Source of the DNA: an uncultured Gammaproteobacteria bacterium
Lineage (GTDB): Bacteria > Patescibacteriota > Patescibacteriia > UBA2196 > GWA2-42-15
Direction of reading: 5' to 3'
Length of the DNA stretch: 64,000 bases
Assembly (NCBI GenBank): GCA_964573135.1
Contig: CAZNIO010000006.1
Span: 1,733 to 65,732 of the forward strand
Shown: positions 24,569 to 25,462 of the stretch, one piece after another
Layout of the letters: each line of letters opens with the position of its first letter
How positions within the stretch are numbered: the first letter of the stretch is position 1
Translations under genes and position numbers: made by a program
Notes under the pieces: model-generated
The model's input: only the letters and a program-made list of their open reading frames with translations
What the model was told of the DNA's origin: nothing
The model's database searches: none

Positions 24569-25462
24569 TTAATTTTTAAAAACTTTTTTCTCATCTATTT
24601 TTTTGGACTGACTGGAATCAACGGTTCTACCGGTGGGCACTCCCCAAAACTGGCAATAAGAACATAGCGGAATCTTATCTCGTTTTCCTTGTTTGTGATA
24701 TTCCAACCACTGCATGCGTTTTTTACTGTTCCAAATATCAACCAAAGATTCCTTGTTAGCATCACCGATAACTCCGATACGCTTGGGATCAAACCTGACA
24801 CAAATAGAAGCTTCACCGTGAGTATTGATAGCCAAGTGGTGCAGAAAATCCCAACAAATGCCAACCTCTGGAATGGTGGGTACTTTCTTTTTGTAATTAA
24901 AGCTACCCATGGGAGCATGTAATATCCTTCTAACCATCAAGAGATTAAATTTTTTATATTTAGCCTCATCCACTTCACCATTAATTCTTAAAACCGTGTA
25001 TGGCTTTCTCTCGCCTTTAATTTTCAAAAACTCTTGAATTAATTTATACTGCTCATCGGCGTCTCCATCCTTCTCGAAAACTGAAATAGCCAAGGTATCC
25101 AGATTGCCAATGATTTCATCGGCTTTCTTGACTAGCAACTTACCGTTGGTAACAATGTTAGTAATTTGATTAGAAAATAGCTTGGTGGCCTCACCAAAAC
25201 GCGGATAAAGCAATCCTTCACCGTTGTTGTGTAATTGAACAACTATATTTGGTGGTAATTGCTTAGCAATCTTTTCAACTAAGGCAAAGTCCATATCGCC
25301 ATACTTCAAAACTAACTCTGGATAGTCTCTCTCAGTTTTTCTGCGGCCACACATCCAACAGTTCTTATTACAACGACTGGTTAATTCTATATTAATTGTA
25401 GACAGGCCATGAAGGCTTTTTTTATTGGGCATATTTTTAGGTAATAGTCCAACCACCATCAA
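24569..25462 (-). CDS. radical SAM enzyme with a C-terminal Cys cluster (SPASM/twitch-like); paralog of 39390..40451
   Basis: INIELTSRCNKNCWMCGRR carries the CxxxCxxC motif. C-terminal Cys residues (CWDFLHHLAINTHGEASICVRF...IPLCSYCQFWG). It shares LxxTSRCNxxCxMCxR and DIWNS motifs with the 39390 ORF. Confidence 0.75.
   Translation of the reverse strand: MMVVGLLPKNMPNKKSLHGLSTINIELTSRCNKNCWMCGRRKTERDYPELVLKYGDMDFALVEKIAKQLPPNIVVQLHNNGEGLLYPRFGEATKLFSNQITNIVTNGKLLVKKADEIIGNLDTLAISVFEKDGDADEQYKLIQEFLKIKGERKPYTVLRINGEVDEAKYKKFNLLMVRRILHAPMGSFNYKKKVPTIPEVGICWDFLHHLAINTHGEASICVRFDPKRIGVIGDANKESLVDIWNSKKRMQWLEYHKQGKRDKIPLCSYCQFWGVPTGRTVDSSQSKKIDEKKVFKN

Follow-up and report, generated by a model that had tools for sequence, protein, structure and literature searches.

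The 64,000-nucleotide window analysed here (contig CAZNIO010000006.1, positions 1,733 to 65,732, of assembly GCA_964573135.1, deposited as an uncultured Gammaproteobacteria bacterium and placed by GTDB in the Patescibacteriota) carries on its minus strand one long glycan-biosynthesis cluster, extending from ~17.7 to 56 kb, which includes the genes for two radical S-adenosylmethionine (radical-SAM) enzymes, rSAM1 and rSAM2 (Table 1). Each lies directly upstream of a NeuB-family gene, as an earlier, sequence-only reading of this DNA had pointed out, with 15 intervening bases in the case of rSAM1 and four in that of rSAM2. Judging from gene content, the window contains two separate cassettes for cytidine monophosphate (CMP)-activated 3-deoxy-2-ulosonic (sialic-acid-like) sugars. 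The most fitting description of both radical-SAM proteins is that of BtrN-like twitch enzymes in two distinct, widely transferred cassettes, and they might oxidize a hydroxyl group of the ulosonic acid to a ketone.

Radical-SAM proteins and their NeuB partners

rSAM1 matches the Pfam models Radical_SAM (29.8 bits, cutoff 29.5) and SPASM (40.6 bits), and both proteins show the CX3CX2C motif and partial TIM barrel of the radical-SAM superfamily, the core motif reading CNKNCWMC in rSAM1 and CNMDCRMC in rSAM2. The true start of rSAM1 is likely Met11 (coordinate 25432), because homologues of 283-290 aa begin there. Exactly seven cysteines are invariant in rSAM1, the three of the CX3CX2C motif and C193, C211, C257 and C260; those of rSAM2 are C86, C90 and C93 followed by C280, C299, C344 and C347. 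In each protein, four invariant cysteines follow the core in the arrangement C-x18-C ... CxxC that characterizes twitch domains with one auxiliary [4Fe-4S] cluster, rather than the seven C-terminal cysteines of a SPASM domain with two. With four conserved C-terminal cysteines instead of seven, rSAM1 and rSAM2 each fit a twitch-type enzyme with a single auxiliary cluster, and their identification as full SPASM enzymes was rejected on the cysteine count; the match to the Pfam SPASM model is explained by the inclusion of twitch domains in that model. The sequence-only reading had assigned both proteins a C-terminal auxiliary-cluster region of SPASM type, of which the cysteines are confirmed and the SPASM type is not. 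Among the motifs that it listed as shared, CNxxCxMCxR and DIWNS are indeed common to both proteins, and LxxTSRCN is exact in rSAM2 only, the corresponding residues of rSAM1 being IELTSRCN.

In profile searches of all PDB sequences, the top match to both families was BtrN, the 2-deoxy-scyllo-inosamine dehydrogenase of the butirosin pathway (PDB 4M7S/4M7T), with E-values of 1.1e-11 for rSAM1 and 6e-19 for rSAM2; the next matches, with E-values of at least 1e-7, were five to twelve orders of magnitude weaker. Three twitch-domain (auxiliary-cluster) cysteines of BtrN align with cysteines of rSAM2. We regard the twitch architecture and the position of BtrN as nearest relative as established, the assignment to the twitch class drawing on motif, sequence and fold. 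No NCBIfam model matched at its cutoff, the best scores being 52.7 bits for rSAM1 and 91.7 bits for rSAM2 (cutoff 380 each). A Pfam scan identified neither a B12-binding domain (PF02310) nor a HemN-like domain in either protein, and the same scan gave no peptide-recognition domain (RRE/PqqD).

The NeuB partner of rSAM2 contains both NeuB and SAF domains and scores above the cutoff of the PseI equivalog model (TIGR03586). The SAF (antifreeze-like) domain closes the sugar site of NeuB enzymes. It is without a match in the short NeuB encoded next to rSAM1, in which the NeuB barrel is intact. The short NeuB scores below the cutoffs of the equivalog models for NeuB (252.8 vs 399.65 bits) and PseI (199.9 vs 340.25 bits) and retains, as judged by eye, two histidine-containing motifs, GYSGHE and IERHIT, equivalent to the histidines that bind the metal in NeuB. 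Given the scores below cutoff, the missing SAF domain and the preserved barrel and histidine motifs, the short NeuB is assigned by sequence to a distinct subfamily of NeuB-fold phosphoenolpyruvate (PEP) condensing enzymes. Its best PDB match is 6ncs, a short NeuB of 290 aa that aligns end to end (E 5e-43). The first ~60 residues of its open reading frame (ORF), encoded at 24374-24553, are not conserved among 69 homologues, and the true start is therefore probably Met61 (coordinate 24373). If this start holds, a 195-base untranslated gap follows the rSAM1 gene. Long upstream ORF extensions were also observed for archaeal short-NeuB homologues and may be an artefact of ORF calling.

rSAM1 and rSAM2 are 25% identical over 281 columns (E 4e-11), and a comparison of the two family profiles using hhalign gave a probability of 99.4% (E 1.5e-21) with all seven conserved cysteines in register; the two NeuB proteins of the window share 33% identity. 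The low identities, together with the membership of each protein in its own deeply conserved family, rule out a recent tandem duplication of the radical-SAM and NeuB genes. The duplicated unit envisaged in the sequence-only reading is thus abandoned, also in view of the missing SAF domain of one NeuB. By sequence, these are two different old cassettes, one based on a canonical PseI and the other on a SAF-less short NeuB.

Table 1. Genes of the two cassettes and associated functions, with positions in the 64,000-nucleotide window
Feature	Position	Strand	Basis
Short NeuB-family PEP-condensing synthase without SAF	23483-24553	-	Pfam NeuB 255.6 bits; ~296 aa from Met61
rSAM1, twitch-type radical-SAM enzyme	24569-25462	-	Pfam Radical_SAM and SPASM; 287 aa from Met11
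SDRa, short-chain dehydrogenase/reductase (SDR), slot enzyme of the rSAM1 cassette	25437-26273	-	Pfam adh_short_C2 150 bits
CMP-sugar synthetase, CTP_transf_3 family, NeuA/PseF/KdsB-like	26275-27015	-	Pfam CTP_transf_3 99.4 bits; PseF model 128.7 bits, under cutoff of 205.7
GmhA-like SIS isomerase	28007-28585	-	NCBIfam gmhA 192.4 bits (cutoff 209.45)
GNAT acetyltransferase, PseH-like	37819-38316	-	NCBIfam PseH 78.2 bits, under cutoff of 93.1
PseI, pseudaminic acid synthase (NeuB and SAF)	38318-39385	-	NCBIfam PseI 426.1 bits (cutoff 340.25)
rSAM2, twitch-type radical-SAM enzyme of the pseudaminic acid module	39390-40451	-	Pfam Radical_SAM 64.9 bits, SPASM 47.3 bits
Class I SAM methyltransferase (Methyltransf_23) beside rSAM2	40461-41354	-	Pfam 99.4 bits
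WbqC-family protein	41351-42055	-	Pfam WbqC 234 bits; kept in rSAM2 loci
Class III aminotransferase, glutamate-1-semialdehyde-aminomutase-like	42056-43345	-	Pfam Aminotran_3 192 bits; kept in rSAM2 loci
Cytidylyltransferase of the pseudaminic acid module, SpsF/KdsB-like	43365-44114	-	Pfam CTP_transf_3 104.6 bits
PseC aminotransferase, upstream step of the pseudaminic acid pathway	47862-48971	-	NCBIfam PseC 443.8 bits (cutoff 423.5)

Spread of the cassettes and their partner enzymes

Relatives of rSAM1 were collected from one genome per species, which yielded 112 proteins; the locus counts given here cover the best 80, all at least 60% identical, and their neighbours were analysed by means of our own ORF calls and BLAST clustering, with annotation of representatives. 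Members of the family are 60-82% identical overall and have the seven invariant cysteines in common. Among the best 120 database matches (283-300 aa, 67-82% identical), the labelled organisms comprise Nanoarchaeota, Woesearchaeota, Omnitrophota, Schekmanbacteria and Kuenenia. The loci span Archaea (Methanobacteriota, Woesearchaeota and Methanoperedens) and more than 15 bacterial phyla, including Omnitrophota, anammox and other Planctomycetota, Lentisphaerota, Elusimicrobiota, Desulfobacterota and Clostridia, and further Patescibacteria, Leptospirales and Actinomycetota. Anaerobes prevail among the hosts, which is what would be expected of an enzyme sensitive to oxygen. One family member (P0257, 518 aa) carries an N-terminal GIY-YIG (LEM-3-like) nuclease domain, an odd fusion that may be an artefact of gene calling.

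Within 6 kb of rSAM1, 71 of the 80 loci encode a short NeuB (median length 286 aa; 47-69% identity to the window's) and 67 a CTP_transf_3 cytidylyltransferase homologue. Nine loci lack a nearby NeuB; in eight of them, the contig contains no NeuB at all and rSAM1 is located 2-3808 bases from a contig end. The three genes stand in a row in Kuenenia stuttgartiensis, and the cassette is also encoded by the cultivable isolate Desulfobacter curvatus DSM 3379 (L050). As PseI likewise accompanies rSAM2 in every locus with enough flanking sequence, the pairing of radical-SAM and NeuB genes is conserved across genomes, in line with what the sequence-only reading had anticipated. Gene identities and the conservation of the cassettes are regarded as established.

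The rSAM1 cassettes differ in one position, here termed the slot. Exactly one of four slot enzymes was identified in 56 of the 64 complete cassettes, namely a class III aminotransferase (Aminotran_3) in 25, a class IV aminotransferase (Aminotran_4) in 15, an SDR of the window's type (SDRa, 278 aa) in eight and a second SDR (SDRb, ~242 aa) in eight, and two were present in a single cassette. Orthologues of SDRa, 47-66% identical, occupy the same place beside rSAM1 in L012, L015, L017, L019, L020, L021, L067 and L039. Because aminotransferase and reductase partners are mutually exclusive, these alternatives argue for a carbonyl intermediate, the fate of which would differ between lineages. Cassettes with an aminotransferase in the slot often also encode a VOC-fold protein and a class I methyltransferase, the most common gene order being NeuB > cytidylyltransferase > Aminotran_3 > VOC > methyltransferase > rSAM1. 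The VOC gene is present in 22 of the 25 Aminotran_3 cassettes and in five of the eight SDRb cassettes, and absent from all those with Aminotran_4 (0/15) or SDRa (0/8). In terms of all 80 loci, the neighbours are Methyltransf_23 (53 loci; 34 of the 64 complete cassettes), a GDP-mannose-dehydratase-like SDR (34), VOC/glyoxalase proteins (33), a separate B12-radical-SAM gene (31; none in the scanned part of the window's cluster), Aminotran_3 (29), Aminotran_4 (19), a GmhA-like SIS isomerase (16 by neighbour clustering), a DegT aminotransferase (14), a TagF-like transferase (7) and a thiamine diphosphate (ThDP) enzyme (7), which we take to be of the type that branches keto-sugars (YerE).

A GmhA-like SIS gene is located no more than 6 kb from rSAM1 in 18 of the 80 loci and is more common in taxa without lipopolysaccharide (LPS) than in the remainder (8/17 vs 10/63, Fisher p = 0.018), the LPS classes having been assigned from general knowledge by record titles. 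This pattern is compatible with a heptose-phosphate substrate and constitutes a weak lead, far from proof; a HAD-type phosphatase, as expected for a NeuB that uses a sugar phosphate, was not among the conserved rSAM1 neighbours. The substrate of the condensing enzyme in the rSAM1 cassette is probably not a 2,4-diacetamido-hexose, since neither the 4,6-dehydratase-like SDR nor the DegT aminotransferase is a constant neighbour and the annotated neighbours include no prominent 2-epimerase family.

Several gene fusions tie the tailoring enzymes to the CMP-activation step. CTP_transf_3 is fused to an SDRa orthologue in L039, to Aminotran_3 in the rSAM2 locus of Desulfonema magnum (L006) and to a radical-SAM/SPASM protein in P0351; furthermore, L030 encodes a radical-SAM/SPASM-methyltransferase fusion. 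P0351 was considered as a member of spiro-SPASM (TIGR04321), a known cytidylyltransferase-radical-SAM fusion, and not confirmed as such (107.9 bits, cutoff 250), the fusion itself being real. It is encoded at 8001-9503 of the polysaccharide locus L172, which contains six radical-SAM/SPASM genes in all, as well as methyltransferases, glycosyltransferases and a heparinase-like protein. A third type of cassette, consisting of a radical-SAM/SPASM gene (~333 aa), a cytidylyltransferase gene and an SDR gene in this order, shares loci with the rSAM1 cassette (L056, 15551-18026; L073, 17183-19686; L082, 15786-18283) and suggests that cooperation between twitch radical-SAM enzymes and CMP-sugar synthetases is a more general pattern.

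Relatives of rSAM2 (~355 aa) were identified by database search in candidate phyla radiation (CPR) bacteria, Desulfonema magnum, Acetobacterium and Saganbacteria. A metagenome scan with the rSAM2 profile gave ~14 loci with true family members; the remaining matches belong mostly to unrelated twitch/SPASM families (25-30% identical) with no NeuB context. Every well-flanked rSAM2 locus is a pseudaminic acid cluster with PseB/C-like genes, a cytidylyltransferase, class III aminotransferase, GNAT, WbqC and PseI. The PseH-like GNAT gene is kept as a neighbour of either rSAM2 or PseI in related loci, and a Methyltransf_23 orthologue is encoded beside rSAM2, mostly directly upstream, in L089, L090, L093-L095, L098-L100 and L006-L008. 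The Acetobacterium locus adjoins a gene for a Maf flagellin glycosyltransferase. Just downstream of the cassette in Desulfonema magnum (L006, 15798-19068), a protein of at least 1555 aa combines methyltransferase, Radical_SAM and SPASM matches with weak or faint polysaccharide-lyase- and cyclase-like ones. In the window, the pseudaminic acid module also encodes a FemAB-like (Acetyltransf_6) protein (45748-46845, minus strand), which might attach an amino acid to the amino group of a sugar, and, directly downstream of the intact PseC gene, a 337-aa ORF (46846-47859, minus strand) with a DegT match of 65 residues only, which may represent a degenerate or divergent aminotransferase.

Elsewhere in the glycan cluster, an ornithine carbamoyltransferase (385 bits, cutoff 306) is encoded beside a 728-aa NodU-type carbamoyltransferase (28589-31694, minus strand), which suggests a carbamoylated sugar linked to a local supply of carbamoyl phosphate. 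At 17747-21460, an initiating sugar transferase (Bac_transf) is encoded beside a 752-aa protein in which an O-antigen-ligase-like Wzy_C domain is fused to TPR repeats, and the two may form glycan-attachment machinery. The SAM synthetase gene metK (12829-13986, minus strand) is located a few kb from the cluster, which includes at least six class I methyltransferases in addition to the two radical-SAM enzymes. Three large minus-strand ORFs are without a Pfam match (3442-6876, 1144 aa; 31704-33017, 437 aa; 34959-36476, 505 aa), the latter two inside the cluster.

Predicted reaction and alternative explanations

NDP-4-keto-6-deoxyhexoses owe the ketone that permits their later diversification to a 4,6-dehydratase. 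An ulosonic acid lacks this 4,6-dehydratase route, which provides a rationale for a radical oxidant. We tentatively propose, as the leading possibility, that the radical-SAM enzyme oxidizes a hydroxyl of the free or CMP-linked ulosonic acid to a ketone, which would then undergo reduction by the SDR in the window and amination or methylation in other organisms; the type of reaction, the position attacked, the choice between free and CMP-linked substrate and the identity of the aldose are what we infer. In the rSAM1 cassette, the short NeuB would condense PEP with an aldose or aldose-phosphate, possibly supplied by the GmhA-like isomerase, and the cytidylyltransferase would form the CMP-sugar. 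The 5'-deoxyadenosyl radical generated by rSAM1 would abstract the carbinol hydrogen of one hydroxyl, and an electron would be handed to the auxiliary cluster to give a keto-ulosonate, as in the mechanism of BtrN. The adjacent SDR might then reduce the ketone, giving an epimer or, should the radical step be a dehydration as in AprD4, a deoxy centre. In other genomes, a class III or IV aminotransferase in place of the SDR would give an amino sugar, and the VOC protein could epimerize a neighbouring carbon, next to methylation and branching by the ThDP enzyme. rSAM2 would fulfil the same role on pseudaminic acid together with the neighbouring methyltransferase, aminotransferase and WbqC protein.

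The predicted oxidation of alcohol to ketone by rSAM1 and rSAM2 draws indirect support from the mutual exclusion of aminotransferase and reductase partners. For the proposed route as a whole, the linkage and conservation of the cassettes, the resemblance to BtrN, the gene fusions, the ThDP enzyme of seven loci, the anaerobic hosts and the parallel logic of two aminoglycoside pathways (BtrN with an aminotransferase, AprD4 with AprD3) also count in favour. Several points weigh against it. BtrN is only ~23% identical, and a Foldseek search with an AlphaFold2 model of moderate quality (pLDDT 76) ranked the peptide-modifying enzymes SuiB and EpeE above sugar enzymes, with CteB also among the top matches. 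Similar twitch and SPASM folds catalyze epimerization, dehydration, decarboxylation and thioether formation, and NAD-dependent dehydrogenases work without oxygen, which makes the need of a radical enzyme for a simple oxidation questionable. Furthermore, seven of the 64 complete cassettes contain no slot enzyme, and the slot enzymes could act on a carbonyl of other origin than the radical-SAM reaction, either the keto group at C2 of the product of NeuB or a carbonyl in the aldose precursor.

A different origin of the ketone is conceivable. In the apramycin pathway, the radical-SAM enzyme AprD4 and the NADPH reductase AprD3 form a pair that removes a hydroxyl. rSAM1 could accordingly be an AprD4-like radical diol-dehydratase and the SDR an AprD3-like reductase, the outcome being an extra deoxy position. 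The SDR gene immediately precedes the radical-SAM gene in the window and in L012, L015, L017, L020, L021, L039 and L067, which mirrors AprD4/AprD3, and the mutually exclusive slot enzymes fit any ketone product, one made by dehydration included. Since the closest solved relative is a dehydrogenase, BtrN, and nothing points to a vicinal diol at the relevant position of the substrate, we consider this possibility unlikely.

The same holds, with a lower ranking, for methylation or C-C chemistry by the radical-SAM enzyme and the neighbouring class I methyltransferase, possibly at a later stage on the assembled glycan. Methyltransf_23 is encoded beside rSAM2 in almost all members and recurs in the rSAM1 loci as enumerated above; the L030 fusion, the grouping of six radical-SAM/SPASM genes with methyltransferases and glycosyltransferases in L172, and the separate B12-radical-SAM gene, likely a C-methylase, of 31 loci point in the same direction. 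However, no methyltransferase gene adjoins the rSAM1 cassette of the window, so that the radical-SAM enzyme must be able to function without one; B12-binding and HemN-like domains are missing from both proteins; and the tight linkage to NeuB and cytidylyltransferase genes points to the monomer stage rather than the glycan. A B12-type C-methylase of the GenK/Fom3 kind was rejected because neither protein matches PF02310. The core of the interpretation put forward in the sequence-only reading, a radical tailoring step in the synthesis of sialic-acid-like sugars, stands, and C-methylation by the enzymes themselves is not supported.

NeoN and EpeE, which are radical epimerases, need a free cysteine as hydrogen donor. 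If rSAM1 and rSAM2 were direct epimerases of this kind, which take away the hydrogen of a C-H bond and put one back on the other face, the aminotransferase or SDR would act elsewhere, for instance on the C2 keto acid or the aldose precursor. All seven invariant cysteines of rSAM1 are accounted for as cluster ligands, so that no conserved free cysteine is left for this purpose, and epimerization would leave unexplained both the tight association of one aminotransferase or reductase with the radical-SAM gene and the cytidylyltransferase fusions; we therefore place it third among the alternatives and regard it as improbable. Finally, a chance location in a sugar cluster of maturases for protein cofactors or for peptides of ribosomal origin that are modified post-translationally (RiPPs) is highly improbable: the best partial NCBIfam matches are maturase families (tungsten-cofactor maturase, PqqE, SkfB and sulfatase maturase), all far below cutoff, and SuiB and CteB are top Foldseek matches, but a RiPP maturase was rejected because there is no RRE/PqqD domain, no plausible precursor ORF in the intergenic gaps and no conserved neighbour other than sugar enzymes. 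With BtrN as nearest solved relative, this supports the view of the sequence-only reading that the pathway is one of sugars and not of peptides; neither of the two observations that it had considered decisive against its proposal, an unconserved pairing or a RiPP-type enzyme with a precursor nearby, was made.

Comparison with described pathways

Flagella, pili, S-layers and lipopolysaccharides carry sialic-acid-like sugars as caps, and these sugars influence recognition by phages, the charge of the surface and the evasion of immunity. To our knowledge, all described routes to these sugars use conventional NAD-, pyridoxal phosphate- and acyl-transfer chemistry only. A literature search combining radical SAM (including BtrN) with NeuB, nonulosonic, ulosonic, pseudaminic or sialic acid retrieved no relevant paper, and a comparative-genomics paper on Leptospira mentions no radical-SAM gene in the sialic acid cluster. 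This agrees with the remark in the sequence-only reading that it knew of no description of such a step. If true, radical-SAM chemistry at this step would introduce a new principle into the biosynthesis of sialic-acid-like sugars, with 60-80% identity retained across DPANN archaea, CPR bacteria, anammox bacteria, sulfate reducers and gut bacteria, and would offer a genetic handle on unexplained ulosonic acids in environmental microbes.

Ulosonic acids with ten-carbon backbones, as yet unassigned, have been detected by mass spectrometry in Magnetospirillum gryphiswaldense (bioRxiv 10.64898/2026.04.20.719630), and Kuenenia produces free-amine, formylated and O-methylated ulosonic acids, which the authors assigned to a different, Leg-like cluster (bioRxiv 10.64898/2026.04.20.719630; bioRxiv 10.1101/2020.12.03.409086). 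A contribution of the rSAM1 cassette to the ulosonic acids of Kuenenia and Magnetospirillum is only a lead. It is conceivable, if rather doubtful, that the rSAM1, short NeuB and cytidylyltransferase genes direct the synthesis of undescribed CMP-ulosonic acids in which a keto group introduced by the radical-SAM enzyme opens the way to amination, epimerization, C-methylation and C2-branching. The backbone may in that case derive from a heptose phosphate via the GmhA-like isomerase, which would result in a ten-carbon acid, and cassettes of the aminotransferase type could give rise to free-amine acids as in Kuenenia, itself a carrier of the cassette. As the cassette is small (four to six genes) and present in cultivable isolates and in Kuenenia enrichment cultures, the question is directly testable.

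With the canonical pathways PseBCHGIF and LegBCHGIF, the rSAM2 module shares a bona fide PseI as well as PseC, PseH-like and cytidylyltransferase genes, and the rSAM1 module shares NeuB-type condensation followed by CMP activation. In contrast to both modules of the window, the canonical pathways contain no radical-SAM enzyme, and the rSAM1 module further differs from them in that a 4,6-dehydratase-like SDR (34/80) and a DegT aminotransferase (14/80) are not constant neighbours. The short NeuB resembles PDB 6NCS, which has the same length and also lacks SAF; 6NCS was deposited as an N-acetylneuraminic acid synthetase, a label that is a deposited name only, and we know of no functional study of it. 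In terms of function, the nearest analogues are the aminoglycoside enzymes BtrN, SpeY and AprD4/AprD3. AprD4/AprD3 follow the same gene logic as the SDR-rSAM1 pair of the window, a likeness of pathway logic taken from general knowledge and not based on sequence. SpeY, the twitch radical-SAM dehydrogenase of spectinomycin biosynthesis (PDB 7WZV), is more distant than BtrN, being absent at E ≤ 1 from the PDB profile search. In the aminoglycoside pathway, BtrN and an aminotransferase together convert an alcohol to an amine. BtrN differs from rSAM1 and rSAM2 in its location in aminoglycoside clusters instead of cassettes with NeuB and CMP-transferase genes, in its substrate, an aminocyclitol as opposed to the presumed C8-C10 ulosonic acid or its CMP ester, and in its distribution, the two families being spread over Archaea, CPR bacteria and many anaerobic phyla. 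rSAM1 and rSAM2 would represent a known enzyme class in a new class of pathway, the rSAM1 cassette being extremely conserved and cross-domain.

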